A DNA stretch of 64,000 nucleotides from the IMG/VR virus record IMGVR_UViG_3300021185_001174, positions 1-64,000 of that record. The stretch is one strand, 5' to 3'. The DNA is from a virus. Both the position numbers and the translations under genes were made by a program. Below, piece by piece: positions 31,557-64,000 of this stretch (the first letter of the stretch is position 1; the number at the start of each line of letters is the position of its first letter). The notes below the pieces were generated by a model. The model was given only the letters and a program-made list of their open reading frames with translations, made no database searches and was not told the DNA's origin.

Positions 31557-31636
31557 ATGTATATATCTATGTATATTCCACGGCCGCCATTAGGAGTTCC
31601 ATACTTATAACGAAGATATCGGCCATAGTTTTTCAT
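31553..31636 (-). CDS. 27-aa micro-ORF coupled to both neighbours
   Basis: MKNYGRYLRYKYGTPNGGRGIYIDIYI*; its start overlaps the upstream stop (TGATG) and its stop overlaps the cyclase start (ATGA). Confidence 0.55.
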   Translation of the reverse strand: MKNYGRYLRYKYGTPNGGRGIYIDIYI

Positions 31637-32397
31637 CAGTCTTGTGTTACAGATACAGCACAACCACCTACTGTAATGCAGTTTTGAGTTAGAGTATATG
31701 TTTGGTTTGTGGTACTCATTTGTTTTAAGATTAAATCTGTTCCGTATAAACCGTCAATTGTTATGTTTGCATTGTGACTTGCATTGTTACCTTTTTGTCG
31801 GACAAATACATCATTATAATCATTATAGATTGTTAGGTTTAAGTTCTTATCACCATCGCTCTGTTGTTTAACCTGAACCTTATTACCATCTCCAGCCAAA
31901 TGTAAATCAAAGCTATGACCTGTAGTAGACCCTTGGTTGGTTTGTTGGACTGCCATATCATTATTATCACCATAAAGAGTAATATCTACCTCATGGCCTC
32001 CTCCTTCATAACCATCAGCCCACCAAGTTAAATCTGTATCAGAATCAAGAGTATTCCATGCAACACCTTGGGCAACTTTCATTTGATTACTAGTACCACT
32101 TACTTCATCAAAGATTATTTTATTAATGCCGTCACTATCATTAACTTGTACTAAATACATTGATAAGCTTGATGCATTAATATATGAACCACTATCTTTC
32201 ATTTCAATTCTATTATTATATCCTATCTGGTCAATACCTAACTGTAAATTATTACCCGACTGCTCGATACTAATAACATTGTCATCGGCATTTGCAATTA
32301 GTGGTAATAAAAGACCGGCCAATATAATAATAGGCCAAAACAGTATACTTATCCATATTAAAGCTTTCATTGAGTATTCTTCTATCTTATCTAGCAT
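31636..32397 (-). CDS. Secreted curlin-like repeat protein (CsgA/CsgB-like)
   Basis: Signal peptide ending ANA; repeats ISIEQSGNN, IDQIGYNN, LYGDNNDMAVQQ, LAGDGNKVQVKQ, VRQKGNN. Confidence 0.65.
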   Translation of the reverse strand: MLDKIEEYSMKALIWISILFWPIIILAGLLLPLIANADDNVISIEQSGNNLQLGIDQIGYNNRIEMKDSGSYINASSLSMYLVQVNDSDGINKIIFDEVSGTSNQMKVAQGVAWNTLDSDTDLTWWADGYEGGGHEVDITLYGDNNDMAVQQTNQGSTTGHSFDLHLAGDGNKVQVKQQSDGDKNLNLTIYNDYNDVFVRQKGNNASHNANITIDGLYGTDLILKQMSTTNQTYTLTQNCITVGGCAVSVTQD

Positions 32398-32398
32398 T

Positions 32399-33511
32399 TT
32401 AATTCACCTGATTTATATATATGAGGATGTCTTCACTATCGTTACCTGTTATTACTCCATTCCATGTTGGTGTAATAGTATCTAGTGTAAAGTTACCACC
32501 CGCCGCTAATTTTATTCTTATAATTCCATTTACGTTTCTATATAGTACTAAACTACCATCTTGCAAAAATACATTATATTGGGATTCATCATTAAATCCT
32601 CTTGCGGCTCCTTTGATATCAAACTCGCCTAATGTATCGAATAAGTCTTTTGAATCTAAAATATCCAATACGTCAATTAAATATTCAACATCCAATTCAT
32701 CTATATCCAATTCAGTAAAATCTAAATCCGTTTCTTCTTCTAGTGCATCTTTCTCTAATTCATCAAACTCTAAAAAGTCTATATCTAAAAAACCTTTATC
32801 ATCATTCTGTTCATCTGCCAATTCTTCCTGAATCTGGTCTTTCACTTCCTGTGGGGGTGAAACGATAAACATATTATCAATGGACGCTGGTGTGATTCCA
32901 TTTATTTTAACTGGCCTTGTTGGTGCGCTATCTAAAGTACTCACCATTGTTGCTTGATAAACTTCGGTTAGAGTTACTACTCCACCTAAATTTTCTACCT
33001 CTATTTCACCCGATGGGTCACCATTCTCATCAGGTAATAATATAATTAAAGACCTTCCTAACTCATCTACTGTTGTGGTAAAGTCCGTACCTCTTATAGC
33101 AATGGATGCCGTAGGGGTAGATATATCAATATTAGCCTTATTAACCAAACCTAATCTACCCGAAGCAAACCTGGCTGTACCCATTGTGAACTTCATTGTC
33201 ATTTTGGAAAGGGATGGGTCAGCATCATAATATACTTCGTCAATTAAGACTTCGGTGTGTTCTTTTAGAGATAACTGAGCCTTATCTAAAAACTCAATTA
33301 ACATCTTACCCTTACCAGTTTCGGCAACGTCATTTAGTTGCACAGGTATATTATTTAATACCTTTATCTCTTCATTATTTCTTAGTATTTGCCCAACACC
33401 TATGGACTCTACAATACTCCCAATATCATCATCCGCAAAGGAATTTGATACCAGAAGTAATGTACTAAGAATCGCCGTTTGTATCTTGCTGATTAATTTG
33501 TATTGTTGCAT
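32399..33511 (-). CDS. FecR-domain periplasmic protein with an acidic C-terminal region
   Basis: Signal peptide; FecR core (ETGKGKMLIEFLD..LKEHTEVLIDE..GTARFASG..TPTASIAIRGTDF). Confidence 0.88.
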   Translation of the reverse strand: MQQYKLISKIQTAILSTLLLVSNSFADDDIGSIVESIGVGQILRNNEEIKVLNNIPVQLNDVAETGKGKMLIEFLDKAQLSLKEHTEVLIDEVYYDADPSLSKMTMKFTMGTARFASGRLGLVNKANIDISTPTASIAIRGTDFTTTVDELGRSLIILLPDENGDPSGEIEVENLGGVVTLTEVYQATMVSTLDSAPTRPVKINGITPASIDNMFIVSPPQEVKDQIQEELADEQNDDKGFLDIDFLEFDELEKDALEEETDLDFTELDIDELDVEYLIDVLDILDSKDLFDTLGEFDIKGAARGFNDESQYNVFLQDGSLVLYRNVNGIIRIKLAAGGNFTLDTITPTWNGVITGNDSEDILIYINQVN

Positions 33512-34205
33512 TGTCTGATGTTATATCTAAATTAATTACTGCATTAGGTGAAACACAAGCAACACCTGCTCCAGTGGCACATGTACCACTAATTTGATTA
33601 ATATCAATATCTGCACTATCGCCAACTAATTCAACGACCATTGATTGAGCTCCATCATTCTGCAATGTATTAATGTTATTACTATCTCCAGTAATATCAA
33701 AAGTCCATGTAGAATCATCTGCTTCAAAGTCTAGGTCGAATATATTAGAGCTACCAATTAAAATTAAATCCGCATCTAATCTTTCAGCACTATATACATA
33801 ACCTTGGTCTAAATCAAATGTATTACTATCTCCAGTAATATCAAAGTTATAATCTGAATCGTCCGAACTACCGACATAGCCGATATTCCAGTCCACCTCG
33901 TTTGAATCTCCCAGTAATGAGAACGTCAAAGAAGATGAATCTAAGTCCAAAGGACCATAAATTAAATTCTGATTTCCGACCATATCAATATCAAATGTTA
34001 ATGATGAACCAACGATAGTCATATCAGAACCAGATGATGAAAAATCATCTAATCCAATTTTGTTACCGTATCCGATTTGGTCAATATATAGAGTTAAAGT
34101 GTCACCACTTTGTTCTATCATAATCTCATTATCATCTGATGCTTGTGCAAAAAGAGAAGGAGTCAACAACAAGCTTAAACTTAAACTAATTAATGTTTTC
34201 TTCAT
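33465..34205 (-). CDS. Secreted curlin-like repeat protein (CsgA/CsgB-like)
   Basis: Signal peptide ending LFA; repeats IEQSGDT, IDQIGYGN, LLGDSN, ITGDSN, LIGSSN, ITGDSN, LVGDSA. Confidence 0.65.
   Translation of the reverse strand: MKKTLISLSLSLLLTPSLFAQASDDNEIMIEQSGDTLTLYIDQIGYGNKIGLDDFSSSGSDMTIVGSSLTFDIDMVGNQNLIYGPLDLDSSSLTFSLLGDSNEVDWNIGYVGSSDDSDYNFDITGDSNTFDLDQGYVYSAERLDADLILIGSSNIFDLDFEADDSTWTFDITGDSNNINTLQNDGAQSMVVELVGDSADIDINQISGTCATGAGVACVSPNAVINLDITSDNATIQINQQDTNGDS
33677..33845. repeat. Exact 25-bp direct repeat, copies 144 bp apart, inside the curlin-like gene
   Basis: tattactatctccagtaatatcaaa at 33677-33701 and 33821-33845; both encode FDITGDSN. Confidence 0.85.
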
Positions 34206-35151
34206 TTTTCTTTTCCTCTATTGAGTGCCTTTCGTTTTTCCCATCATGTTGATGAGGATGTCTATGGCCCTCGGTTAAATTCCAGAACTTACGGTCATGA
34301 CCCTGGTATATTAATTCAAGTACTCCTGCCTCTATGGCTGCTCGTACCGCATATGTCACACTCTCATTATTTCCCACTCCGTCCTCGTATTCAATTAGTT
34401 GTGTACCCTGTTCATAGAACCTGAATACATCACCACTTGAACCATAAGAAAGAACCGACTTCTTACTTTGGACGTTTAATAAAACTTCACCAGTTAAGAC
34501 TGAAACTGCTCTAATTGCAACAGTTACTACATCTTTCCTATACATTCTACTATAACCAATACCAAGTGTCCTTGCGCCTCGACCACCTGTTTCAGTATTT
34601 GTATCATAACCAATAATGCCACCTTCAATAATTATTCCAGCGAATAAAAGTGGACCCAATTCCTTTGCAGTGTTTCCTTGGCTCTTGGCCATGTCTTGTC
34701 TGCCGCTACGGATAATCTGTCTTTCTCTTACTAGATTATCAATACCTTGTCTTTCTGCTACTCTAAACCATGTACCGCCACCTGCAGTCTTAAGAGCATC
34801 TATTAACATTTCAGTACCGCCTTGGGTAACTGCAGTAGAGAATGAAGCTATGTTATCTACTGATTTTCTTTGTCCAGTTAAATCTTTAAATGAATAAACT
34901 GCAACAACTGGTCTATCTTTTGCTGGTGGTAAATTTAATAAATCTACAAATGCAGGTAACTTAACAGCTGTAGGATGGTCAACACATATATACTTACGAG
35001 ACTTAAATTGATTCCATAAGTATGGTTCATCATCAGCACATTTCTGTGGGTCTTTCGACCACTGCGGTATAGAAGCACAACCACTTAAAAATAAAATAGA
35101 TATTAATAAAAGTCTAACCATCATCTGGGTCCTGACTAAAATTACCAGCAC
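34186..35151 (-). CDS. csgG: Curli secretion channel lipoprotein CsgG (probable start about 35121)
   Basis: Lipobox FLSGC; VAVYSFKDLTGQRK, FSTAVTQGG, WFRVAERQGIDNLVRERQIIRS, GGIIGYDTN, NESVTYAVRAAIEAGV. Confidence 0.93.
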   Translation of the reverse strand: MLVILVRTQMMVRLLLISILFLSGCASIPQWSKDPQKCADDEPYLWNQFKSRKYICVDHPTAVKLPAFVDLLNLPPAKDRPVVAVYSFKDLTGQRKSVDNIASFSTAVTQGGTEMLIDALKTAGGGTWFRVAERQGIDNLVRERQIIRSGRQDMAKSQGNTAKELGPLLFAGIIIEGGIIGYDTNTETGGRGARTLGIGYSRMYRKDVVTVAIRAVSVLTGEVLLNVQSKKSVLSYGSSGDVFRFYEQGTQLIEYEDGVGNNESVTYAVRAAIEAGVLELIYQGHDRKFWNLTEGHRHPHQHDGKNERHSIEEKKNEENIN

Positions 35152-35626
35152 CTACTGGTATTTCTATGATAGTTTCGGAACCATCTTCTGTTATAATTGT
35201 CATTCTTATTACTTCTGAACCATCAGCATTAGTAATAACTTCGTATGTTACTGTAGAACCTTCTAATACAAATGAACCAAATCTAACAGAATCATCATTA
35301 CTAAACATTGATTCTACTAGTTGTTTTGCCATCTGTGCATATATTCTACTCTCTAAGTTCCTAATAAACTTGGCCAATACACTATTATCTTCTTCTCTTT
35401 CTGCGGCTCTTCTTGCGGCTTCTAAAGCATCTTCTATTGCTTTCTTTCTAGTATGTTCAATATTATCTATGGTAAGATAATGGTTACCAGTACCAACTCC
35501 ACTAAAGGATGGATTTTTAAACCCAAATTTTATTTCATCTGCCAATACTGGATATGATACTATAAATAATACCATAAGTAAAAGCACAATATTTCTAATC
35601 TTCATCATTATTTTCTTTCGCCTCAT
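35114..35626 (-). CDS. csgF: Curli assembly protein CsgF-like
   Basis: Signal peptide, then EIKFGFKNPSFSG; FIRNLESRIYAQMAKQLVESMF; adjacent to csgG. Confidence 0.82.
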   Translation of the reverse strand: MRRKKIMMKIRNIVLLLMVLFIVSYPVLADEIKFGFKNPSFSGVGTGNHYLTIDNIEHTRKKAIEDALEAARRAAEREEDNSVLAKFIRNLESRIYAQMAKQLVESMFSNDDSVRFGSFVLEGSTVTYEVITNADGSEVIRMTIITEDGSETIIEIPVGAGNFSQDPDDG

Positions 35627-44664: not shown

Positions 44665-45090
44665 CTACTTTGTTATCAAACCAGGAAATGCATCCTGACA
44701 AAGCTTCTTAGTGATACCAGTATATTTCATCTTCTTATCTTTCGCCAATACTAGCATTTCAGCCTCTGAAGCATGTAAGGACTCCAATAGCTGAATAAAC
44801 ATTGTTTCTCTTTTGATAGGGTTGACTGCGCGTCCAGTTGGGCCGTTAAAGAAAAATTTAAACCTAGTGTATCTTTTCTCTAGCCTAGAAATATTTTTAC
44901 CTGCTGGTGCATCATCTGGCTCGTAAGGCGGTGCGCCTGTTGGTAATAGACAACTAATACTTTCATCATAGTTGATTCTGATTAAGTCCTTCATTGCTGG
45001 ACTTTGATTTTGTCTGAGATAATTAACTCTCTCTTTTTTAGTTTTTAATTTACTTGCCTCAGTAAATATTTCACTTAGTAATCTTTTCAT
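44665..45090 (-). CDS. Conserved hypothetical protein of T4-like phages
   Basis: LLSEIF..LLPTGAPPY..KRETMFIQLLESLHASEAEML. Confidence 0.8.
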   Translation of the reverse strand: MKRLLSEIFTEASKLKTKKERVNYLRQNQSPAMKDLIRINYDESISCLLPTGAPPYEPDDAPAGKNISRLEKRYTRFKFFFNGPTGRAVNPIKRETMFIQLLESLHASEAEMLVLAKDKKMKYTGITKKLCQDAFPGLITK

Positions 45091-52937: not shown

Positions 52938-53183
52938 CTACTTAGTCTCTATTGTTTTTAAATGTAACTTCTGAGCCTGTAGTTCTTTCTTAGCTTCATT
53001 AGCCTTTTTACGAGCTAACATTCTTTCTACGAATTTTCTACCTTCTTTAGTTCGGCCATCGTATACTCTTTTCTTATGTTTCTTATGTTGAGCTGGAGTC
53101 ATAGCATCTGAGGGCATTGAAACTCCTCCACCTGCTACTGAATTAGCTGCTGCATCTTCCCATATATCTTTAAAACTTTTCAT
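52938..53183 (-). CDS. Small protein with CTS-like N-terminus
   Basis: MKSFKDIWED; YDGRTKEGRKFVERM. Confidence 0.7.
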   Translation of the reverse strand: MKSFKDIWEDAAANSVAGGGVSMPSDAMTPAQHKKHKKRVYDGRTKEGRKFVERMLARKKANEAKKELQAQKLHLKTIETK

Positions 53184-55557: not shown

Positions 55558-55822
55558 GTTTATAAACCCTGCATTTTAGGGGAGTAGCCCCTTTAATTAA
55601 CCTATGGTATTCTTCTTTCTTAATATCAAATACCATTCCTTTTTTAAGGAGCCAAGGTAGACATTTCTGTAACTGAATCTGCCAACCTTCTCCTTCTAGT
55701 ATCTCTATTTCTCTATCTTCCATATCACGATGCCAAACATACTCAGCATCATCTATAGAGGGGTCGAATGTTCTAACCTCTCCATCTTCCCAGTACGGTT
55801 TACCAAAAGTAATTTCCACCAC
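55541..55822 (-). CDS. Small cupin-like protein
   Basis: YVWHRDMEDREIEILEGEGWQIQ..EYHRLIKG. Confidence 0.7.
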   Translation of the reverse strand: MVEITFGKPYWEDGEVRTFDPSIDDAEYVWHRDMEDREIEILEGEGWQIQLQKCLPWLLKKGMVFDIKKEEYHRLIKGATPLKCRVYKHGDSS

Positions 55823-56189
55823 CTGATAGTCCTAAGTCTTTTGCATAACGCGGTAATCGACAAGCCCAATACCCAGACGACATCTTATCTGTCTTAGTAT
55901 CACAATTATGGCGGGCTGCAAAGGAAGCAGCTGCCCCCTTATCGTTAATCTTACTAGTGAGGCCGCCCTTGGCATCACCAAATTCTATCTTCTTTACGTT
56001 TCCTGTTTTAGGATTTTTAACGTAAACAACGTATTTCTTTTTACCACTAGACCTTTTAGGTGAGTTAAGTTCTACATCTCTACCCTGGTAATCTGCTTCT
56101 GATAGCTCAATCATTGGTTGCTCTAACGGCACCTGTTGACCTTCATAAAGTCCGAATCTCTCTTCTATGTGTTCTAAGAAACTATGCAT
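55800..56189 (-). CDS. Conserved basic protein with CTS-like N-terminus
   Basis: MHSFLEHIEE; KKYVVYVKNPKTGNVKKIEFGD..SFAARHNC..GYWAC. Confidence 0.75.
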   Translation of the reverse strand: MHSFLEHIEERFGLYEGQQVPLEQPMIELSEADYQGRDVELNSPKRSSGKKKYVVYVKNPKTGNVKKIEFGDAKGGLTSKINDKGAAASFAARHNCDTKTDKMSSGYWACRLPRYAKDLGLSGGGNYFW

Positions 56190-56665
56190 TATACACCCAA
56201 GCCTTTTATTAGTCTTATTACTTTACTTAGTAACATTTTAACAGCTGTGTAATATGCAAATCCATGACCCCATAATATATGAAAGGTATGGTTCTTTTCT
56301 ATTTCTGATTTAGGTCCGAACTTCTTAGTCCAGTTATCTACATATTCACCTTTATATCTTAGTACTGCATGTGATACTTTCCACTTACTAGGTCCAACTA
56401 GACAGATACCAGCCTGATGTGTTATTAACATCCACCACATCTTAAGGTGACTCTTTCCACATAGTCTATAAAGAATTGATAAAGAATAATCTTCGCAATC
56501 CCCTACTAATTTACCTTCTGCATCTTCTGAATAAATAACTTTCCATGCATCTGCAAAGCCATATTGTTCTCTATCGTATCTATATTTCCACTTAGAATTA
56601 AATGATTGTACTATTCCATCTCTTTCCAATTTTGTCATTTTCGACCCCCCTGACTCTTTATCCAC
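56189..56665 (-). CDS. Transglutaminase-like cysteine peptidase (BTLCP-like)
   Basis: GDCEDYSL (Cys), SHAVL (His), YVDNW (Asp). Confidence 0.7.
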   Translation of the reverse strand: MDKESGGSKMTKLERDGIVQSFNSKWKYRYDREQYGFADAWKVIYSEDAEGKLVGDCEDYSLSILYRLCGKSHLKMWWMLITHQAGICLVGPSKWKVSHAVLRYKGEYVDNWTKKFGPKSEIEKNHTFHILWGHGFAYYTAVKMLLSKVIRLIKGLGV

Positions 56666-57309
56666 TTTTGAGCTATTTTATTCTCTGGTGTTTTCTTAGC
56701 CCACTGTTGTATATCCTTATAAGCTTCTAAAGTAGATGTGTTAATATCTGCATCTGTTGAGTTATCTATTACTGTCATTCGGTTACGAAAAAGCCCTTGG
56801 AATTTACCAATGTTTTTCTGTACTGATTTCCACATCTTCTCAACTTCTGGCTCTTTTAACTGTCTTGGTCTATTCTTATTTCTTTGTTGTGCAGTCTCTA
56901 AATCTGTATTAACAAATATCATGTGTACTGCATAACCTATATCTCTTAACTGGTCCACACTTGCTTTAATTTTGGCATAGTCTTTACCAGTACCATCTAT
57001 TACAACACCTAACCTACCTTTTAAAGCAATCTCTAATTGTTTGCCTGTAAGTTTCTTTGCCTTATCTCTAAGAGCCTGGCCCTGGGCAGAATATATATCA
57101 TCTGGCTCCATAGTAAGTCCTGCTTTAGTAAGTGCATTTTCATAGTTTGTATCAGAGTTTATAAGTTTAAACCCTAAAGATAATAAAGAAGTCTTACCAA
57201 CTATAAATGATTTACCTGAACCAGGCCCACCGGCAAGGAATACTGCCTTAAATATAGATGGGTCATTTACACCTTCATCAATTTTAAAATGTTCTTTAAA
57301 CCTTATCAT
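56635..57309 (-). CDS. P-loop kinase (Pnk / zeta-toxin / AAA_33-like) with CTS-like N-terminus
   Basis: VFLAGGPGSGKS, INSD, VVIDGTG, lid QRNKNR; N-terminus MIRFKEHFKIDEG. Confidence 0.85.
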   Translation of the reverse strand: MIRFKEHFKIDEGVNDPSIFKAVFLAGGPGSGKSFIVGKTSLLSLGFKLINSDTNYENALTKAGLTMEPDDIYSAQGQALRDKAKKLTGKQLEIALKGRLGVVIDGTGKDYAKIKASVDQLRDIGYAVHMIFVNTDLETAQQRNKNRPRQLKEPEVEKMWKSVQKNIGKFQGLFRNRMTVIDNSTDADINTSTLEAYKDIQQWAKKTPENKIAQKWIKSQGGRK

Positions 57310-57659
57310 TTCTTTAAATCGTACCTAAATGATTTATTTTTATCCTGGCCACTCTTAGTAATACCATACCCAGCAATCTTAGCTAGTTGTTGAAGTACTG
57401 GCCAATTCTTTTCGGATTTCTTACTTCTATTATTCTTCAGCATGTCATTTTCTATTTTATTAAATAAAGTTTTAATCATATCCAAGTCATGCATGACCAA
57501 TGGTGCTTCTTCTAAGTCTTCACTTCGAGCTCTTCTGAAGTCTTGTTTAGTAGGCGCACCTTTTGAACCTGCCTTCCTCATTGGTCGGCCTTCTTTTCTT
57601 TTATTATGGATATTGGCCCAGAGACCATTTCCTTCCATGAAATCCTTAAAGTCGCTCAT
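57306..57659 (-). CDS. Small protein with CTS-like N-terminus
   Basis: MSDFKDFMEG; GLWANIHNKRKEG..MRKAGSKGAPT. Confidence 0.7.
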   Translation of the reverse strand: MSDFKDFMEGNGLWANIHNKRKEGRPMRKAGSKGAPTKQDFRRARSEDLEEAPLVMHDLDMIKTLFNKIENDMLKNNRSKKSEKNWPVLQQLAKIAGYGITKSGQDKNKSFRYDLKK

Positions 57660-58999
57660 TTCTTTAATAGTCCCTTTGCTTTAATTCTATCATGGTATGT
57701 AAACTGATAGTTCTTGCCATTCTTAGTATCTTTAACAATGTAAGTTGTTGGTGTCATCTTAGTAACTTTACCCATATACTTGGCACCATCAGCACGATAG
57801 TAATCTACTTCTGTACCAACTTTAATTGACTTCTTAGTTTCTGCGCCCATTCCGTGTTTTGCAAGAACTCTATAATTTTCTAGGAAGTTACTTACTATTT
57901 CTTTTCCCTTTGCTCTTGTTAGATAATGAGTATCTTCTTTCATATTTTCCTTTTCCCTTTCGTGTTTCTTTTTAAGAGTTTCTACTTCTTTGGCTTGTTT
58001 TAATGCAAGTTGTGCTTTCTCTTCTGGTCCAGGAGCTTCTTCCATGAATGACTTAATGTGCTTGATATCAATTTTCATCTTCTTAGATATCCATTGAGCT
58101 GACTTACCAGAATCAATATAACCTTGAAGTTCTTTTACTTTACCTTCTTCAACATTTTCAACATACCCTTTATCACCAGGCTTTTTATTATGATTAAAAA
58201 CTTTCTTACCAAGTGGTGTAAGGTTACCCTTTTTATCATACATTTGGTTTACAAGTTTCTTTTCTGATGATGATAAACTTTGTTCTTTAATTCTGCCTTT
58301 GACTATATCTTCTAAGTCACGAGATAACCAATCAAAAAACTCATCGGGGTCATCACTTTTAATTTCATTGTTGTTCAATGCCCATTGAGTTAGGTCATCT
58401 TCCGCTTTCTTACCAGCAGAAGACATGAATGATAAATCACCAGTTTTGTATGCTTTTGTAAGTTCTCTTTTATGTTTTCTGAAGAGGTCTTTCATCTTTG
58501 CTTCTGATATAACTTCTTCTTTAATCATCTTATCAACAGTCATGCCGCTTTTAAATTTACCACCTGACATTGCTTTAGGATACATTTTAGCAATTAAGTC
58601 ATTATAACCTACGAGTATGTTTAATATGTCAGATTGGATTTCTTTTGTTGAAATGCCTTTAATTACTTTCTTAACTGCACCGAGGTTGCCTTGAGCAAGT
58701 GCACGAGATACTGCCTGATAGTCTTTCTGGTCTTGACCTGTTTCTTTCTTGGCAAGTCTTGCTACATTCTTAGTGGCTAGAGTTAGGTCTTGATTATAAT
58801 CTTCATTAACTGATTCATTAGCCTGTTTTAATGCATCTGCAACAATAGGGTCATCCGCAAGACCTCTTTTCATCGCCTCAATCTTTTTATAGGCTCCGGT
58901 CATGTTACCACCCATATCGATTGCAATTTTAACTGCCGCCGCTACCAGAGAAGCTGGATATTTACTTCTATACTTCTCTCTTAATTGTTTAAATTTCAT
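57656..58999 (-). CDS. Modular internal-head-like protein with CTS-like N-terminus
   Basis: MKFKQLRE; modules separated by xNE / xSE / xKE / xEE junctions. Confidence 0.7.
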   Translation of the reverse strand: MKFKQLREKYRSKYPASLVAAAVKIAIDMGGNMTGAYKKIEAMKRGLADDPIVADALKQANESVNEDYNQDLTLATKNVARLAKKETGQDQKDYQAVSRALAQGNLGAVKKVIKGISTKEIQSDILNILVGYNDLIAKMYPKAMSGGKFKSGMTVDKMIKEEVISEAKMKDLFRKHKRELTKAYKTGDLSFMSSAGKKAEDDLTQWALNNNEIKSDDPDEFFDWLSRDLEDIVKGRIKEQSLSSSEKKLVNQMYDKKGNLTPLGKKVFNHNKKPGDKGYVENVEEGKVKELQGYIDSGKSAQWISKKMKIDIKHIKSFMEEAPGPEEKAQLALKQAKEVETLKKKHEREKENMKEDTHYLTRAKGKEIVSNFLENYRVLAKHGMGAETKKSIKVGTEVDYYRADGAKYMGKVTKMTPTTYIVKDTKNGKNYQFTYHDRIKAKGLLKK

Positions 59000-59013
59000 T
59001 TGTTAGTTTCCTC

Positions 59014-60276
59014 TTATTTTACTTTAGCGGCTAAGTCTTTATCTGCCTTACCCCATGTTCCTGATGATTTGGTTACAAAAGAATTGACTCTTGCTAACCC
59101 CCATTGTGTTGGATTAGTTCCTGGCCTATGGCCTGTTCTCCAAGCCGCAAATCCTCTATCAAATACTTTTCTTAATATGGCTAATGGCATACCTGACTTA
59201 TCTGCTTTCTTTTTAAGAGCATCATCAGCCTTACCTTCATTAACTACATAATCTTCAAAACTTAAATGTTTGGCCATTTCTCCGTACATATCTTTATATT
59301 TCTTAGTATGTTTTGATGGCTTTGTTTTTGCTCTTGCATCTCCAGGAGCTGGTTTATATGCGGCTGGATTATTATCATCCTTTTCAGCACCCTTCTTAAA
59401 GTGGGCTTTTCTTTTGGCTGATGTTGACTTTGCAAGACCAGAGTAATAGTTAGTACCCTCAGCTTGTTCTACTTGTTCCAACCAGACTTTCTTATTACCC
59501 TTAGGGAAAGCTACTGTAAGATAATTCGCACCTTTAGTGATAATCTTACCCTTCTCTTGATTTTCTTTTAGTCTAACTGTATCACCAACATTAAACAAGT
59601 CACCTAAAATAAACTGTTCTCTTGTTTCTGATACAGTCGGTAGTTCTATATGAGACCTAAAGCTTTTCTCTTCTTTAAGGCCCATCCCTTTTCTCACTGC
59701 ATTAAATAACTCAGCTGAACCAGTATAACCACTTGGAAGACCACTAGAAAATGTTTGTAAATCCCCTTCTGCGGCCGCTGCTCTCATTTTAGAGGCTGAC
59801 ATTCCTGTTACACCTTCTGCATCTGGGTCTCTTTGCCCTGCAGAGAGTACTTTAATAGTTCCTTCAAATTGATAGAAGCCATGTCTTGCCTGAACACCAT
59901 TATATTTGTTTAGTAAGATTTCAAATTCTTTTACTCTATCTGAACCTGCAACCATTGACATCTTAGTAAAACCTTGGTCATATAACTTAGTTGCGATTTC
60001 AATTATAGTACGCACGTCGCCGTCTGCCATGATACTTCTGGCATGTCTAGGAAACATTTTTCTTAGGAACTTAATCTTGTCTTTAAATTTAAGAGGATTC
60101 TTTTTAGGGTCTTGGGATTGTGATGCGTATATTCTATATGCACCTCCACGTGATACCTTTTTAAGAGTTTCAAAAAGTTTTTCGTGGCCTGTAGTCGGCG
60201 GATTAAATCTACCAAATACTACGGTTATTTCTTTTGATGCTTCGACTATATAGTCGCTAAAGTTTTTGACTTTCAT
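59014..60276 (-). CDS. HIGH-family nucleotidyltransferase (cytidylyltransferase-like) fused to C-terminal basic modules
   Basis: VVFGRFNPPTTGHEKL, VAGSDRV, SAGQRDPDAEGVTGMSASKMR; C-terminal AILRKVFDRGFAAWRTGHRPG..WGLARVNSF. Confidence 0.85.
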   Translation of the reverse strand: MKVKNFSDYIVEASKEITVVFGRFNPPTTGHEKLFETLKKVSRGGAYRIYASQSQDPKKNPLKFKDKIKFLRKMFPRHARSIMADGDVRTIIEIATKLYDQGFTKMSMVAGSDRVKEFEILLNKYNGVQARHGFYQFEGTIKVLSAGQRDPDAEGVTGMSASKMRAAAAEGDLQTFSSGLPSGYTGSAELFNAVRKGMGLKEEKSFRSHIELPTVSETREQFILGDLFNVGDTVRLKENQEKGKIITKGANYLTVAFPKGNKKVWLEQVEQAEGTNYYSGLAKSTSAKRKAHFKKGAEKDDNNPAAYKPAPGDARAKTKPSKHTKKYKDMYGEMAKHLSFEDYVVNEGKADDALKKKADKSGMPLAILRKVFDRGFAAWRTGHRPGTNPTQWGLARVNSFVTKSSGTWGKADKDLAAKVK

Positions 60277-60293
60277 TTATCCCTGGTTCCCAT

Positions 60294-61538
60294 TTAGTTA
60301 GGACTATCCCAACCTTTAATTATATCTTTACTGAAGTTGTTGTAGGAGAATTCTAACCTATCAACTAACTTAACAGCGCCACCTTCCATTCTATCTATAG
60401 CAACAAAACCTTCTTGGTTGGTTACCTTAAATCCGGATTTAGTCTTGACAAAGGTATTAATTTTATTAAGACTATTAAGTTTATTTATAAGAATTAATTT
60501 ACTATTTACAACAAAATTCTGTAAATCGAAGATTAATTTTAGGTTCTTTATATTACCTTTACTAAAGAATTTAAGTAATGCATCTCGTTTATCTACTTGA
60601 GTCTGTTTACCTTTATCTGAACTTCTTTTATCAATCTCTTTTTGATACCTATTATTAATCCACATTACTAGTCCAGTGGCATGTTTCTTAGTATCTGTAA
60701 TTCTTTGGCCTTCTCTCACCTTGGAATTATTATATACATTTAATAACATATTTAATTCCGAATTGGACTCTAACTCTTTTAATGTAGTAGATGCGATTTG
60801 TTTAAATACTTTACCAGCACCTGAAAGATTTTTATTTAGTTCTTCTGTTTCTGCTTTAGTAAGAGTTGCAGTACCAGAAAGGTCAGGTAATGTTGCATCT
60901 TGCATCCATATATCTTTTGACTTCTTTAACTTAGGTACTATCTCTTTACCAAACTCTGCTCTCATTGTCTCAAACGTTGCTCCACTATACGTTGTATGCC
61001 AAACAATTCCAATCTTAGCTGCTCCAATCTCCTTAGCGAGAGCACTATCAGTAGGTACTGCGTAAGCGATAGTGTTAGGATGAAACACAATATGACTAAC
61101 TCCATTAATCTTCTCCTTTTTAAGGTCTGACTTATCGAACATAAAGTCGCCCTGTATAACCCCTTTGATTCCTATATTCTGTAAAGTATCGAAAGCCATA
61201 ATAAGTTTTTTACTTAAGTCGCCTGATGTATCTGCTTTAATATCTTCATGTGACTTATAGATTTTAGGATTCGCATTGAAGATACCTTTTTTAGCAACAA
61301 AGAATTCTCCTGTCTCTGGGTGTTCTCCAGCAAACACGGCGGGGGCTCCGTCCCATTTCACGGTAACATCCACTGGTGCTTTGGTGTTACCTGAAAGCAT
61401 ATCCCTTAGACTTCTAAGCGCTAGGATTGCTTGGCGAGCCCCCTTGACCCCACCATCTATAATTAGGTCTTCAATGTGGGTCATATGAGTATTCTTTGTT
61501 GCTTCATGCAATGGAGTATAGCTAGTTAATCGTTTCAT
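60294..61538 (-). CDS. Conserved phage protein with RNA-ligase-like nucleotidyltransferase motifs (DUF6267-like, from memory)
   Basis: NTHMTHIED; motif I TVKWDG, III IQGDF, IV EGFV, V AVKLV. Confidence 0.7.
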   Translation of the reverse strand: MKRLTSYTPLHEATKNTHMTHIEDLIIDGGVKGARQAILALRSLRDMLSGNTKAPVDVTVKWDGAPAVFAGEHPETGEFFVAKKGIFNANPKIYKSHEDIKADTSGDLSKKLIMAFDTLQNIGIKGVIQGDFMFDKSDLKKEKINGVSHIVFHPNTIAYAVPTDSALAKEIGAAKIGIVWHTTYSGATFETMRAEFGKEIVPKLKKSKDIWMQDATLPDLSGTATLTKAETEELNKNLSGAGKVFKQIASTTLKELESNSELNMLLNVYNNSKVREGQRITDTKKHATGLVMWINNRYQKEIDKRSSDKGKQTQVDKRDALLKFFSKGNIKNLKLIFDLQNFVVNSKLILINKLNSLNKINTFVKTKSGFKVTNQEGFVAIDRMEGGAVKLVDRLEFSYNNFSKDIIKGWDSPN

Positions 61539-62995
61539 TTATATAACCTCTTAAAGTCTTCCGTCATCATTGCATTAAAATTAGGTGCACTTGAAAAGTT
61601 GCCTTTATATCTTAATATAATATTACATACTGCAACTGGGCCAATGAATAAAGTAAACTTTAAATTGGCGGCTCCAGAGCCTGGGTCAAATGCTTGTTTT
61701 GCACCTGGAGTATATTTCATTAATGGTTTGCCTTGAGAAAATAAATCATCTAGTTTACTTGATACTGAATCAATGTCTTTATACTCTCCGCCTTCTACTA
61801 CAACACCTTTCTTAGGGCCGTAATCTCCAACGCCTGTAACTAGTGCAAAATCGAAATTAACTTTTTGTAATTCTTTTAAGTCGGACTTAAATATTAATTG
61901 AACTAGAATATTTGAGAATAAGTCTGACTTGGATAATATTGTTTCACCCATCATTTTAAATAATGTTCTTTTACCTTTTAATACTCTATTAATAAGGTCA
62001 TTGGGAATTCTATTAACATACTTTTTCCAGTTCTTAGTATTTACTGGATTCTTGTTAAGGTCATCAAATAAGTCATCAGACATCATATCAGGATATCTTT
62101 TTCTTAGTCTCTGAGCCAGTTTAATTACATGCACATAAAATCTACCTGCATCTAATTCTACATCTTCTTTTAATTTTTTAAGTTTCGGTTCATTAAGTAG
62201 CTTTGTAAATGATTTATTAATAAGGGTTGGGTCTTCTTCTGTAACCCTTTTCTTTTTCTTTAAAGATACTCCTAGAAATTTATTACCTTTCTTAATAATA
62301 AAGTCAGATGAATTAAAATCTTGCATTCCATATTTTGACATTTGGAATTGTTTTACATCTTTATCCCATGACTGACCAGTAAGATAAACCATATCAGCAT
62401 TACCATATCCTGCGTCAATAATAACATTAGCGGCCGATACTGCCTTACATAAATTTGGATAATCTCCTTCAAGAGAATCCACTTGACTCTGTTTATAACC
62501 TTTAACTTTCTTTAATTGAGCTCTTACCAATTGAATCATTGCATCCATTTCATCAGAATTAGTAATTTTATGTTTTGATGGGAAGAGACATAATGCAGCA
62601 GTCATAAGCTCATGAGGGTCATCACCTAAAGAACTACGGCCACCCATTGGTCTAGCATTTACATAGATTGCTTTATCCATATCTTTATGTTTAAAGTAAT
62701 AATCTTTTTCTGCTCTGGCACCTGATATCTTAATAAGTTCTAAATTTGGTTCTTTTTCAATAATTTCTCTAGCGAGTGTAGAGAATGTTCTTCTGTTCTT
62801 ATCTGGCATTAATTGAGAAATACCAATCTTCTTTGAATTTGATTTACCAGACCTGAGGTCTAATTCAACTTCAGTATCTACAGATGAAATTGCATCATCT
62901 ATGGCCTGTACCAACTTTACTGCATTCAGATTATCGTCAGTAGTTGAAAGAGTATCGAGTTCCTCTGTCATAAAACTGTTTTTAAATCTTATCAT
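61535..62995 (-). CDS. Putative PD-(D/E)XK-fold nuclease-like protein with CTS-like N-terminus
   Basis: DPHELMTA..NSSDFIIKKG..GVSLKK; N-terminus MIRFKNSFMTEE; late promoter upstream. Confidence 0.55.
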   Translation of the reverse strand: MIRFKNSFMTEELDTLSTTDDNLNAVKLVQAIDDAISSVDTEVELDLRSGKSNSKKIGISQLMPDKNRRTFSTLAREIIEKEPNLELIKISGARAEKDYYFKHKDMDKAIYVNARPMGGRSSLGDDPHELMTAALCLFPSKHKITNSDEMDAMIQLVRAQLKKVKGYKQSQVDSLEGDYPNLCKAVSAANVIIDAGYGNADMVYLTGQSWDKDVKQFQMSKYGMQDFNSSDFIIKKGNKFLGVSLKKKKRVTEEDPTLINKSFTKLLNEPKLKKLKEDVELDAGRFYVHVIKLAQRLRKRYPDMMSDDLFDDLNKNPVNTKNWKKYVNRIPNDLINRVLKGKRTLFKMMGETILSKSDLFSNILVQLIFKSDLKELQKVNFDFALVTGVGDYGPKKGVVVEGGEYKDIDSVSSKLDDLFSQGKPLMKYTPGAKQAFDPGSGAANLKFTLFIGPVAVCNIILRYKGNFSSAPNFNAMMTEDFKRLYK

Positions 62996-63065: not shown

Positions 63066-63073
63066 TATTTATA
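63066..63073 (-). promoter_or_regulatory. T4-type late promoter heading the CTS block
   Basis: Intergenic TATAAATA upstream of 62995. Confidence 0.65.
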
Positions 63074-63411: not shown

Positions 63412-63638
63412 TACACTAGTTCCAAGAAATCATCAAACATGCCTGGGTTATCAGCAACAACTCTTTTAATGTTTTTCTTAATAGTAGCAACATCATCAGT
63501 GAAACCTGCCTGTTCTGCAGTTTCAATTCTTGTCTTTACTGTATCATAATCAAACTTGAAAGGGTCATCATAGATTGTTGGTCTCCATTGGATAGTAGAG
63601 TCCTTTTCAATTCCTTTATATTTTAATTTACTTTTCAT
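63411..63638 (-). CDS. Hypothetical protein
   Basis: ATGA overlap with the ligase stop. Confidence 0.65.
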   Translation of the reverse strand: MKSKLKYKGIEKDSTIQWRPTIYDDPFKFDYDTVKTRIETAEQAGFTDDVATIKKNIKRVVADNPGMFDDFLELV

Positions 63639-64000
63639 AGTTTTTCTCCTGGGGCAAATCCCCTAAATGTTTTAAATCTTGGGAATCTTAATGAATAAGT
63701 CCCATCTTGGTTTTGTGAAATAGAGTCGGCTCTAATTTCCACCAACTGGCCTAATACAGCATCTTGGTCTTTCCAAATACTATCTCTAATCTTATCAGTT
63801 AAGCCACCACCGACATTGACTTTAATATCAACATCTTCATCGTGTCCTGCACAAACTAGAGCACCTGTTGTTCCTTCGAACTTACCCTGACCTTCTTCAA
63901 TACTTTCTACTGTCAGAGTTACTTCTATAAATGGCTTGATTTTAAACCAAGCATTACTTCTTTTACATTCATATAAACCGTCTATTGGTTTAACCATAAT
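63635..64000 (-). CDS. 30: ATP-dependent DNA ligase gp30, C-terminal part (truncated at the right edge)
   Basis: KPIDGLYECKRSNAWFKIK (motif V), VNVGGGLTD, YSLRFPRF (motif VI). Confidence 0.92.
   Translation of the reverse strand: MMVKPIDGLYECKRSNAWFKIKPFIEVTLTVESIEEGQGKFEGTTGALVCAGHDEDVDIKVNVGGGLTDKIRDSIWKDQDAVLGQLVEIRADSISQNQDGTYSLRFPRFKTFRGFAPGEKL

Follow-up and report, generated by a model that had tools for sequence, protein, structure and literature searches.

What does a marine phage gain from a run of late genes whose products combine enzyme folds for handling nucleotides with the same short N-terminal peptide? The question is raised by a 64,000-nt stretch of DNA (the window) from an uncultured marine T4-like myovirus, whose genome carries a head module of T4 type comprising a portal, a prohead core protein, a gp21-type protease, gp22 and gp23. 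The original prediction for this locus was a virion-delivered RNA-repair and anti-defence kit of four enzymes: a Pnk-like kinase, a protein with RNA ligase motifs, a HIGH-type nucleotidyltransferase and a nuclease. All four enzyme ORFs lie on the minus strand, at positions unchanged from that prediction, among the following features:

63066..63073, minus strand: T4-type late-promoter motif, TATAAATA, 70 nt upstream of the first leader-bearing gene
61535..62995, minus strand: 486-aa leader-bearing protein with a Pol-beta-type fold and a second region, accessory (AF2, VIA, phrog_3060)
60294..61538, minus strand: 414-aa DUF6267 protein, leader and ligase-type domain (Pfam, AF2, VIA, BFVD)
59014..60276, minus strand: 420-aa protein, leader, HIGH-type nucleotidyltransferase and DUF5824 (phrog_3041, phrog_395, DUF5824, PF01467)
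59236..59268, minus strand: internal leader-like peptide HLSFEDYVVNE, residues 337-347 of the 420-aa protein (sequence and homologues)
57656..58999, minus strand: 447-aa Lys/Glu-rich protein starting MKFKQLREKY, conserved block member (synteny)
57306..57659, minus strand: 117-aa leader-bearing protein, MSDFKDFME-G (ORF and leader)
56635..57309, minus strand: 224-aa leader-bearing P-loop kinase of Pnk type, accessory (AAA_33, Zeta_toxin, hhalign)
56189..56638, minus strand: ~149-aa leaderless protein, accessory (weak BTLCP/LapG-like resemblance)
55800..56189, minus strand: 129-aa leader-bearing protein, MHSFLEHIEE-R, phrog_7595 (PHROG match)
52938..53183, minus strand: 81-aa leader-bearing protein, MKSFKDIWED, last conserved gene of the block (leader and synteny)

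The enzyme genes belong to a late operon of ~10 kb that runs from the promoter motif at 63066 to ~52938. As with alt in T4, the block is found downstream of the DNA ligase gene. In all ten related loci having a homologue of the 486-aa protein, and in five of six other loci inspected by eye, TATAAATA occurs 14-77 nt upstream of the leader gene that opens the block. Across the window the motif is not enriched (18 observed, 14.8 expected), so that only its position is telling. Of the block members outside the enzyme set, the 447-aa protein has no match to any Pfam or PHROG family; a 457-aa gene product at the same position in cyanophage S-SZBM1 (S-SZBM1_139), paired with it by position alone, is in the virion proteome of that phage. 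The ~149-aa protein weakly resembles transglutaminase-like cysteine peptidases (BTLCP/LapG), with every match under curated cut-offs, and its start is more likely the ATG at 56638 than the GTG at 56665. Several small basic or acidic proteins of the block have no known fold.

Most products of the block begin with a leader of 10-13 residues with the consensus M-K-S/T-F-K-E-F-x-E/x-E, the first seven positions of which are also the start of T4 IPI (MKTFKEF). Each protein family retains its own leader in homologues, and unrelated block-opening genes of other contigs bear one as well. In 25 related viral contigs, the strict pattern was present in 99 of 403 ORFs in the block versus 6 of 277 outside it (Fisher P 3e-18, for a pattern picked post hoc and homologues that are non-independent, with 91 distinct leader strings). 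Within the window the leaders share no similarity at the DNA level, and their conservation is that of a peptide. A scoring matrix derived from 231 marine leaders gave the T4 leaders from NC_000866 19.0 bits for IPI (MKTFKEF...), 12.9 for IPII/III (MKTYQEFIAE) and 3.7 for Alt (MELITELFDE); among the ORFs of this genome the median is -7.8 and the 95th percentile 6.4. Within the T4 capsid-targeting sequence, targeting is the task of residues 4 and 7, and cleavage, which falls after L/I-x-E, is directed by residues 8 and 10 (PMC9026906). The propeptides of T4 Alt, IPI, IPII and IPIII likewise span 10-13 residues and are aromatic at position 4; in T4 internal proteins and marine leaders alike, position 7 is aromatic or hydrophobic and the end is hydrophobic-x-Glu, the type of site cut by T4-type prohead protease. 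In AF2 models, residues 1-13 of the 414-aa protein and 1-11 of the 486-aa protein are disordered. Judged by sequence, the leaders are not a matter of chance and are the local form of the capsid-targeting sequence of T4, which bears out the capsid-targeting-like N-termini proposed for the four enzymes.

Among the enzymes, the 414-aa protein matches Pfam DUF6267 (6e-101), a family of 2607 clusters at 50% identity. Its 13-residue leader is followed by a ligase-type nucleotidyltransferase domain with the KxDG lysine K61, interrupted at ~217-357 by a helical insert; an OB domain is absent. The motifs KWDG (61-64), QGDF (129-132), EGFV (376-379) and VKLV (389-392) stand in ligase order; across 62 homologues with 35-62% identity, K61, D63 and E376 are conserved in at least 90%, and G64, G130, D131, G377 and K390 are invariant. 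In the AF2 model (pLDDT 92.7), motifs I, III, IIIa, IV and V lie on the expected strands, as they do in RNA ligases without an OB domain, which are also its best structural matches in VIA: REL1 (Z 7.8), Trl1 LIG (7.6), NgrRnl/Rnl5 (7.5), T4 Rnl2 (7.2) and T4 Rnl1 (6.7), over 168-205 aligned residues, with all of these scores, up to the maximum of 7.8, in VIA's ambiguous range. DNA ligases score Z 5-6.4. Leaving family members aside, the first annotated BFVD match is an RNA ligase (E 3.5e-3, prob 0.99). The RNA ligase resemblance of the original prediction thus holds at the level of motifs and fold. RNA ligases nevertheless share no detectable sequence-profile similarity with DUF6267, and hhalign found no link between its profile and either the phage's own DNA ligase or T4 Rnl1 (prob 0.2 and 0.5). 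Further differences are the Asp in place of the usual Glu in motif III, a motif V with a single Lys (K-L-V-D-R), and a helical domain of ~140 residues between motifs IIIa and IV where RNA ligases have an appended N- or C-terminal domain. From its motifs and fold, DUF6267 is probably a lysine nucleotidyltransferase acting on nucleic-acid ends.

Unlike RNA ligases, DUF6267 is always coupled to a HIGH-type transferase, here the 420-aa protein. The two genes are adjacent, fusions exist in both orders, and among 82 related loci only this pair is core. Behind its leader, the 420-aa protein has a HIGH-type (TxGH ... SxSxxR) domain at ~15-205, a small beta domain at ~215-275, a basic linker, and DUF5824 at ~276-414. 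Profile matches are to phrog_3041 (4e-102), phrog_395 ('cytidyltransferase'), DUF5824 (4e-18) and PF01467 (0.003). The predicted transferase motifs are present as TTGH (28-31) and SASKMR (160-165), and P26, P27, T28, G30, H31, S160 and R165 are conserved in at least 90% of homologues, cyanophage and fused forms included. The nearest NCBIfam models are the NMN/NaMN adenylyltransferases NadR and NadD, at scores far below their cut-offs (18.5 bits against 341 and 16.8 against 112). TxGH and SxSxxR occur throughout the HIGH superfamily and therefore do not reveal the substrate. The internal peptide HLSFEDYVVNE precedes the last part of DUF5824 and is kept by homologues as L-T-F-E-D-[YF]-x-[VI]-x-E; either a leftover from a gene fusion or a protease site inside the protein could account for it.

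As predicted, the 224-aa protein is genuinely homologous to the T4 Pnk kinase domain. In hhalign it aligns with residues 3-148 of T4 PseT (prob 91.5%, E 8.5e-7), with the P-loop, catalytic Asp and RxxxR lid in register, and the corresponding motifs GGPGSGKS (27-34), INSD (50-53) and RNKNR (143-147) are invariant in 11 homologues. Pfam matches are to AAA_33 (7e-13) and Zeta_toxin (7e-11); CthPnkp and PSTK are matched weakly. As in bacterial Pnkp and Trl1, the kinase has a ligase-type enzyme as neighbour or fusion partner (DUF6267 in P0003); in P0002 it is the 129-aa protein that is joined to the DUF6267 N-terminus. Unlike Pnk, it carries the capsid-targeting-like leader, has no 3'-phosphatase or cyclic-phosphodiesterase domain, and by eye is missing the Arg three residues past the catalytic Asp. 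Its gene is accessory, being present in 15 of the 82 related loci.

The 486-aa protein, which matches phrog_3060 and is likewise accessory (12 of 82 loci), had been proposed as a nuclease from a D..SLK motif. The motif stands, as D231 and S244-L245-K246 do not vary among 30 homologues, but the primary identity does not. In the AF2 model (pLDDT 79.9), residues 17-118 form a Pol-beta-type nucleotidyltransferase fold, matched in VIA by 199 chains at Z>=8, with URT1, GLD-2, TUT7 and CutA at 10.1-10.3. The catalytic palm of these enzymes and of cGAS superposes on this domain (Z 9.6-10.3, ~95 residues, rmsd 3.0); unlike poly(A)/poly(U) polymerases and CD-NTases, the phage protein has no central or PAP-associated domain and, by reading, no clear hG[GS]...DxD signature. 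The second region (~126-486), which holds the D231...S244-L-K246 motif, bears a weak resemblance, in the ambiguous range, to HinP1I, a type II endonuclease (202 aligned residues, Z 7.1). Some restriction enzymes have D...(Q/S)-x-K sites, which the invariant D...S-x-K recalls, and the region is possibly restriction-endonuclease-like. With a Pol-beta-type fold first and such a part second, the protein is not simply a nuclease; we know of no characterised enzyme with this combination. Fusion to a PAP2 phosphatase occurs in some homologues.

Given a T4-type head-loading tag on all four enzymes, the leader-bearing proteins are likely to be packaged in the phage head and would probably be injected along with the DNA. 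The marine phage shares with T4 the gp21-type protease, the scaffold, the late-promoter motif before the block and the locus downstream of the DNA ligase gene, and in both the cargo set differs among relatives. The cargo itself is different, an ADP-ribosyltransferase and small inhibitors in T4 compared with ligase-, HIGH- and Pol-beta-type nucleotidyltransferases and a Pnk-type kinase here, where at least ten genes form a single operon and packaging and cleavage are predicted from genes. Cyanophage virion proteomes offer a second comparison, as they report homologues of the 420-aa protein in S-SZBM1 (S-SZBM1_140), S-SCSM1 (ORF91), S-CREM2 (ORF154) and S-CBWM1. This virion 'NMNAT/cytidylyltransferase', for which the authors proposed delivery into the host, is of the same protein family; in the searchable parts of these papers it is not tied to DUF6267, a ligase fold or a capsid-targeting leader. 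In cyanophages the pair sits among replication genes and DUF6267 is leaderless (S-SZBM1, P-HM2), whereas the marine DUF6267 bears a leader. The S-SZBM1 transferase, with a leader-like start, was found in virions; its leaderless DUF6267 is off the virion list, which would make packaging specific to the marine clade. The leaderless form also indicates that the enzymes evidently function when made inside the cell.

That observation is the natural starting point for a reading without packaging, in which the leader serves cytoplasmic complex assembly, stability or translation start and the enzymes act in the cell late in infection. It is consistent with the leaderless cyanophage forms of both enzymes among replication genes, and with the proteome authors' own warning that abundant soluble proteins may contaminate CsCl preparations. 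We consider it unlikely, as the leader agrees with the T4 sequences at the positions that matter, ends in the protease motif, is conserved as peptide and not as DNA, and is confined to a single block headed by a late promoter at an alt-like position; the sorting of the two S-SZBM1 proteins by leader also argues against it. In another reading, the block would chiefly supply internal head proteins with a structural or DNA-condensing role, and the folds of enzyme type would be relics without activity; the lack of an obvious Pol-beta signature and the small members without a known fold are in its favour. It is very improbable, since DUF6267, the kinase and the HIGH enzyme keep their catalytic residues with little or no variation throughout very large families.

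Two further readings accept delivery but assign the cargo a specific task. One is a pre-made Pnk and Rnl kit that on injection reverses tRNA cleavage by anticodon nucleases of the PrrC/RloC type, for which the kinase homology, the nearness of DUF6267 in fold to RNA ligases such as Rnl1 and Trl1, the kinase-DUF6267 fusion and the tRNA- or RNA-directed kinases (PSTK, CthPnkp) among the weak matches all speak. In the T4 Pnk/Rnl1 pathway, a ligase of Rnl type cannot seal 2',3'-cyclic phosphate ends without 3'-end healing. The kinase has no phosphatase half, and no 3'-phosphatase (PNK3P), 2H phosphoesterase, Tpt1 or other 3'-end healer was found in the 120.8 kb searched (67% of the genome), so the complete T4-style heal-and-seal kit of the original prediction is not established. 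The kinase is also absent from most related loci, the constant partner is a HIGH transferase that has no role in the Pnk/Rnl1 pathway, and we know of no anticodon nuclease in the likely hosts; this reading is accordingly rated improbable. The other, which we hold to be equally improbable, takes the HIGH enzyme as an NMN adenylyltransferase that restores NAD+ at entry to counter defences that deplete NAD, with DUF6267 using or being fed by NAD+; for example, DUF6267 could be a ligase dependent on NAD+, and its fused partner would re-adenylylate the NMN released. NadR and NadD are the only curated families matched by the HIGH domain, the cyanophage authors label the homologue an NMNAT and suggest that virions carry it, and a common nucleotide cofactor would suit an enzyme so closely coupled, and in places fused, to one of ligase type. 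Against it stand the sub-threshold scores and superfamily-wide motifs described above, together with the lack of a Nampt/NAPRTase partner in the same 120.8 kb and of any defence-related match in PADLOC.

On balance we lean, if only slightly, towards a late operon that supplies head-loaded, ejected nucleotide-handling enzymes for the early repair or modification of polynucleotide ends. In the manner of T4 Alt and IPI, the leader proteins would join the scaffolding core, lose their leaders to the gp21-type protease and leave the head together with the DNA. Once in the host, DUF6267 would take up an NMP on Lys61 and activate or join ends bearing a 5'-phosphate, with the NMNAT-like HIGH transferase and its DUF5824 tail as obligate partner; some phages would add to this cargo a 5'-kinase of T4 Pnk type, and some the protein that pairs a Pol-beta fold with a restriction-endonuclease-like region. 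Repair of RNA against a host nuclease is a less likely extension of this proposal, and a role in anti-defence is purely conjectural. For this clade of marine phages, the RNA-ligase-shaped DUF6267, a member of an unstudied family, would then belong to a cargo that repairs or modifies the ends of polynucleotides as soon as infection begins, with RNA a likelier target than DNA.

The long open reading frames (ORFs) of the finding all lie on the minus strand, in a late operon of about 10 kb that extends from a late-promoter motif at 63066 down to roughly 52938. Four products of this block had been proposed in the original prediction to form a virion-delivered kit for RNA repair and anti-defense:

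61535-62995, minus strand, 486-aa protein with a predicted Pol-beta-type fold and a nuclease-like region
60294-61538, minus strand, 414-aa protein of family DUF6267
59014-60276, minus strand, 420-aa HIGH-type transferase with a DUF5824 part
56635-57309, minus strand, 224-aa Pnk-type kinase

The motifs quoted for these proteins were each found in place and are conserved in homologues. Also encoded in the window are baseplate wedge proteins of the T4 type, ribonucleotide reductase, spanins and the C-terminal end of an ATP-dependent DNA ligase. The virus record comprises 120.8 kb at about 67% completeness, which limits every absence claimed for the genome. Megablast of the region returned no close DNA-level relative among phage records. 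By protein, the nearest named phage is C48C1 (Kyanoviridae), whose counterpart of the 414-aa protein is 55% identical. Next come Methylophilales phage Melnitz, Pelagibacter phage HTVC008M, Stenotrophomonas phage DLP6 and hundreds of cyanomyoviruses. T4-like myoviruses that infect marine bacteria, cyanobacteria and SAR11 included, count among the sea's most abundant viruses. Elsewhere in the window (29712-35626, minus strand), five or six ORFs in a row, with sizes of 614, 253, 370, 246, 321 and 170 aa, carry signal-peptide- or lipoprotein-like N-termini such as MKKTLISLSLSLLLTPSLFAQ and ...FLSGCAS; a run of exported proteins of this kind is unusual for a phage.

Pfam assigns the 414-aa protein to DUF6267 (6e-101) and to no other family, and an exhaustive search yields 2,607 clusters for DUF6267 at 50% identity. 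Across 62 homologues of 35-62% identity, G64 of the KWDG motif (61-64) is invariant along with G130, D131, G377 and K390, and K61, D63 and E376 are at least 90% conserved. An AlphaFold2 model made with this 62-sequence alignment (pLDDT 92.7, pTM 0.89; residues 1-13 disordered) places K61 at the end of strand 56-61, ahead of the loop that leads to strand 67-72. In the same model, QGD131 of motif III is on strand 127-135, F152-x-P-N-T-I of motif IIIa on strands 147-162, E376-G-x-V of motif IV on strand 377-382 and K390 of motif V on strand 387-391. By conservation and model together, motifs I, III, IIIa, IV and V follow the ligase order on the correct strands, with two variants: Asp replaces Glu in motif III, and motif V has a single Lys plus R394.

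When the model was aligned with VIA against 48,161 PDB representatives with no prefilter, the best rows were RNA ligases at Z 7.8-6.5, all of which fall below the tool's caution line of Z 8. They include T. brucei REL1 (7.8 over 197 residues), fungal Trl1 (7.6 and 7.1), Naegleria NgrRnl (7.5), T4 Rnl2 (7.2) and T4 Rnl1 (6.7). DNA ligases are next in the list (Z 6.4-5.0), and the two kinds of ligase occupy more than 20 of the best 40 rows. It is the consistency of this ligase-dominated list, and not any single Z, that persuades with respect to the modeled fold. The ligase alignments cover residues 15-400, with a helical insert at about 217-357 matched separately. In BFVD, a viral structure library, the first annotated match outside DUF6267 is an RNA ligase (E 3.5e-3, probability 0.99). 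Foldseek found nothing in the PDB at E<=0.001 for the 414-aa or the 486-aa model; its weak, sub-threshold PDB matches to the former are ligases too. The modeled 414-aa chain ends 22 residues past motif V in a single helix and has no OB-fold domain after that motif, an arrangement that fits RNA-ligase-like architectures but neither DNA ligases nor capping enzymes.

At the level of sequence, DUF6267 queries of the PDB by phmmer or with a profile gave nothing beyond chance-level matches, and hhalign detected no similarity to the phage's own DNA ligase (probability 0.2) or to T4 Rnl1 (probability 0.5). An ESM Atlas search with DUF6267 excluded recovered only unnamed viral clusters. The match list dominated by one superfamily, the placement of the motifs, the missing OB domain and the lack of a profile link to ligases argue for describing DUF6267 as a putative ligase-type lysine nucleotidyltransferase of a separate family, not a member of Rnl1 to Rnl5. 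The covalent-nucleotidyltransferase motifs originally read in this protein are thereby borne out, both by their conservation in order and by RNA ligases as best structural matches. Residues 248-326, part of the helical insert, also align with three YqeY (GatB-tail-like) structures over 77 residues (Z 5.9-6.4). Helical bundles can reach such scores by chance, and the match is taken only as a lead; GatB-tail domains are said to bind tRNA.

In the 420-aa protein, GRFNPPTTGH occupies residues 22-31 and SASKMR residues 160-165, and PPTxGH and SAS-x2-R are kept in cyanophage and fused forms. Motifs of the (H/T)xGH and SxxxxR type are characteristic of the HIGH superfamily as a whole and are not specific to NMNAT. 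Among PHROG families, the HIGH domain matches those annotated 'cytidyltransferase' (4e-102), and the protein falls below the curated cut-offs of TIGR01526 (18.5 bits versus 341) and TIGR00482 (16.8 versus 112), which are the NadR and NadD NMNAT models, as well as of PF01467 (18.1 versus 21), a model on which the scores of fused homologues go up to 30 bits. Searches of the PDB with the transferase by phmmer or by profile A3, which is diluted by fused sequences, gave only chance-level matches. Thus, the HIGH character proposed for this protein stands on its conserved motifs but its membership of the NMNAT family does not, and its substrate cannot be read from the sequence.

The gene order 414-420-447-117-...-81 is kept in 80 related viral contigs. 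At related loci the constant pair consists of the 414-aa and 420-aa genes, and the accessory genes are present at 15 (kinase), 12 (486-aa gene) and 11 (158-aa gene) of 82 loci. Among family representatives, fusions of DUF6267 with the HIGH transferase occur in both orders (five and three examples), and S-PM2 encodes a 591-aa fusion of the two. DUF6267 is also found fused with the kinase (homologue P0003) and with the 129-aa protein of the block (homologue P0002). These gene fusions argue for a shared pathway for DUF6267 and its partners. For the partner transferase and for the kinase, clusters at 90% identity number at least about 8,000 each.

The 224-aa protein belongs to AAA_33/Zeta_toxin in Pfam (AAA_33 at 49.5 bits versus a cut-off of 27), and its motifs GGPGSGKS, INSD53 and R143-x3-R147 are conserved in homologues. 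Its profile (A4) aligns with T4 PseT by hhalign at 91.5% probability (E 8.5e-7, 139 columns), in a register that pairs GGPGSGKS with GCPGSGKS, INSD53 with INRD35 and RNKNR with RNSKR; weak matches to C. thermocellum Pnkp and PSTK point in the same direction. The predicted likeness to Pnk is therefore upheld as homology to the kinase half of the T4 enzyme. A kinase of this type together with a ligase-like protein could be read as a complete T4-style tRNA repair kit. However, the alignment spans Pnk residues 3-148 only, and the C-terminal 3'-phosphatase half (DxDxT) is absent from the 224-aa protein. Nor was any family match to PNK3P, 2H phosphoesterase, Tpt1 or a canonical RNA ligase found in the 120.8-kb record, itself about 67% complete, and the constant partner of DUF6267 is the transferase, not the kinase. 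The HIGH motifs could likewise be taken to indicate a role in NAD reconstitution, against which stand the very weak NMNAT scores and, within the same incomplete record, the lack of any match to a Nampt/NadV-type partner (PF04095). PADLOC, run on eight block proteins, found no match to defense-system models. What can be said most firmly is that the ligase-type DUF6267 protein is coupled to a HIGH transferase and often accompanied by a Pnk-type kinase, a combination that points toward reactions at the 5' ends of polynucleotides. Beside the kinase gene, the 158-aa ORF (window 56189-56665) is listed with a GTG start that overlaps it; an ATG nine codons downstream (56638) is more likely the start. 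The 158-aa protein carries no leader and shows a weak likeness to BTLCP/LapG-type transglutaminase-like cysteine peptidases.

For the 486-aa protein, the model (pLDDT 79.9; residues 1-11 disordered) superposes residues 17-118 on the catalytic palm of non-canonical poly(A)/poly(U) polymerases and cGAS-like enzymes (Z 10.1-10.3, 93-97 aligned residues, rmsd 3.0). As many as 199 chains match at Z of at least 8, and the Foldseek probability for the Pol-beta match is up to 0.99. The canonical hG[GS]...DxD signature was not found in the protein, and the expected DxD strand at 56-63 (KIGISQLM) is devoid of carboxylates. The acidic residues that are conserved comprise D98 and D105 and, on the strand before it, E42, E44 and D46. 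Within the full-length model, residues 126-486 align with HinP1I (Z 7.1, rmsd 4.6, 202 of 241 residues). This protein had been put forward as a nuclease, an idea that the HinP1I-like region and the invariance of D231, S244 and K246 (D...S-L-K) in homologues keep alive as a possibility, although the main fold is of the Pol-beta type. Its description as simply a PD-(D/E)xK nuclease was rejected, with a Pol-beta nucleotidyltransferase fold as the best-supported domain. Some homologues of about 722 aa (P0259 and P0261) are fused to a PAP2-family phosphatase domain (PF01569), which could be the missing phosphatase of the kit if it acts on nucleic-acid ends.

The targeting of enzymes such as Alt and IPI into T4-type heads is textbook knowledge. 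Most products of the block begin with a short leader peptide, which on the four proteins of the proposed kit had been likened to the T4 capsid-targeting sequence. In order, the block N-termini are MIRFKNSFMTE-E, MKRLTSYTPLHE-A, MKVKNFSDYIVE-A, MKFKQLREKY (447 aa), MSDFKDFME-G, MIRFKEHFKIDE-G, MHSFLEHIEE-R and MKSFKDIWE-D. That comparison gains support, since the leader of each family is kept in homologues, resembles the T4 leaders and is enriched in the block. Within each family the leader remains constant while the mature part diverges, and unrelated genes that open the block in other contigs also bear one, for example MESFKTFIAE-G on a kinase. A first fixed rule gave 4/14 versus 4/136 (P 0.003), a post hoc and modest result that was replaced by multi-locus and matrix tests. 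In 25 contigs, a strict pattern matched 99 of the 403 block ORFs and 6 of the 277 that lie outside it (91 distinct strings; P 3e-18); this pattern was set after seeing the data, and the homologues in that count are not independent. Because upstream DNA and codons differ between genes, selection acts on the leader peptide itself. The same observation led to rejection of the idea that a repeated DNA cassette, or a translation-start sequence common to the genes, gave rise to the leaders as a by-product.

The leaders of T4, as taken from NC_000866, are MKTYQEFIAE (IPII/IPIII), MKTFKEFTST (IPI) and MELITELFDE (Alt). The 231 distinct marine leaders have the consensus M-K-S/T-F-K-E-F-(R/L/I)-E-E, and T4 IPI agrees with it exactly over its first seven residues. 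A matrix was derived from the marine leaders, with positions 4, 5 and 7 partly fixed by the selection rule; on it, IPI scores 19.0 bits, IPII/III 12.9 and Alt 3.7, and for the ORFs of the genome the median is -7.8 and the 95th percentile 6.4. In the ten-residue T4 sequence, targeting is directed by residues 4 and 7 and processing by residues 8 and 10; the gp21 cut falls after L/I-x-E, and foreign proteins up to the size of beta-galactosidase have been packaged and ejected with the tag (PMC9026906). The block leaders share the targeting residues 4 and 7 and the terminal L/I-x-E, with some looser endings (F-M-E, W-E and L-H-E). Both a T4-type prohead protease and a scaffolding core are encoded in the same genome, in the following module:

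95.9-101.0 kb of the genome, T4-type head module with gp21-family protease (phrog_207), gp22 scaffold (phrog_237), prohead core protein (phrog_1064), portal and gp23 major head protein

Between the prohead core protein and the protease, in the position of T4 gene 68, lies a 78-aa ORF (genome 99095-99331, minus strand) that starts with MLSFVELREK, scores 12.8 bits on the leader matrix and is like the M-K-x-F-K-E-L/I-R-E subclass of the block leaders, for example MKFKQLREKY of the 447-aa protein. Outside the block, a 141-aa protein (phrog_461; window 44665-45090, minus strand) adjoining an exonuclease gene carries the leader-like MKRLLSEIFTE-A. There are also internal copies. In the 420-aa protein, HLSFEDYVVNE-G at residues 337-347 (window 59236-59268) precedes the last part of DUF5824 and is kept in homologues as LTFEDY/F-x-V/I-x-E. 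In a 304-aa kinase homologue (P0468), SFKQHFDIME-G follows an 80-residue N-terminal extension. Both suggest either that cargo genes once separate have been fused or that the head protease cuts polyproteins.

The late-promoter motif TATAAATA is intergenic and precedes the 486-aa gene by 70 nt. It occurs 14-77 nt upstream of the first leader-bearing gene at 10 of 10 loci with a 486-aa homologue and at five of six others inspected. Since TATAAATA is not enriched in the window overall, the promoter argument rests on position. The block comes after the DNA ligase gene, with three small ORFs between (window 63635-64000, genome 63635-64900), much as the packaged enzyme Alt of T4 follows gene 30 (DNA ligase) in the same orientation (NC_000866 125.7-127.2 kb). 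T4-like phages that are only very distantly related may share this site as a conserved 'cargo' locus.

Mass spectrometry of CsCl-purified virions has detected transferase homologues in S-SZBM1 (_140), S-SCSM1 ('NMNAT', ORF91) and S-CREM2 (ORF154), and the S-SCSM1 paper reports one in S-CBWM1 virions as well. The neighboring 457-aa _139 of S-SZBM1 and the adjacent ORF155 and ORF156 of S-CREM2 were also detected. In two of these proteome papers, host delivery was proposed by the authors, together with a caution about contamination. These transferase homologues from cyanophages lend indirect support to the predicted presence of block proteins, with the propeptide removed, in the mature head. From record mapping, the S-SZBM1 transferase has a leader-like start, MRFRQFIIE-A; the DUF6267 protein of that phage starts with MAKNTH, has no leader and is absent from the virion list. 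The P-HM2 forms, located between gp41/mazG and gp61, are leaderless too. Leader-bearing starts were read in genes of phage C48C1. DUF6267 representatives include both leader-bearing and leaderless proteins, and the leader stands directly ahead of the conserved KNTH start of the domain. The leaderless cyanophage forms imply that the leader is an add-on of one clade and that the pair also works when made in the cell.

A broader reading, which we hold to be rather unlikely as it stands, is that DUF6267 and its HIGH partner constitute an unrecognized two-enzyme system for polynucleotide-end modification, which in a single clade of abundant ocean phages was turned from an intracellular pair into capsid-injected cargo by a T4-type leader and a late promoter. 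Such a system might cap or adenylylate the ends of phage DNA as it enters, or those of RNA from host or phage, using a nucleotide cofactor perhaps produced in place. That virion-borne 'NMNAT-like' proteins are noted in cyanophages is already known, and varied cargo under the same tag has been suggested for T4 relatives (PMC9026906). In the literature searched, DUF6267 is not mentioned, and neither its ligase-type nature nor its obligate coupling to the transferase was found. The same holds for a leader system in marine T4-like phages and for the contrast between leader-bearing and leaderless forms; a search of cyanophage and marine literature for the capsid targeting sequence gave T4 reviews only, and PMC2984593 does not mention internal proteins.

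If the leader works as in T4, these phages would deliver a variable enzyme set whose action precedes the expression of all phage genes, and the Alt/IPI principle would extend well beyond coliphages. It would also explain the recurring 'NMNAT-like' proteins in proteomes of cyanophage virions. The analysis offers a first functional hypothesis for DUF6267 and DUF5824 and, should end modification prove true, they would belong to a new class of injected take-over or counter-defense enzymes.
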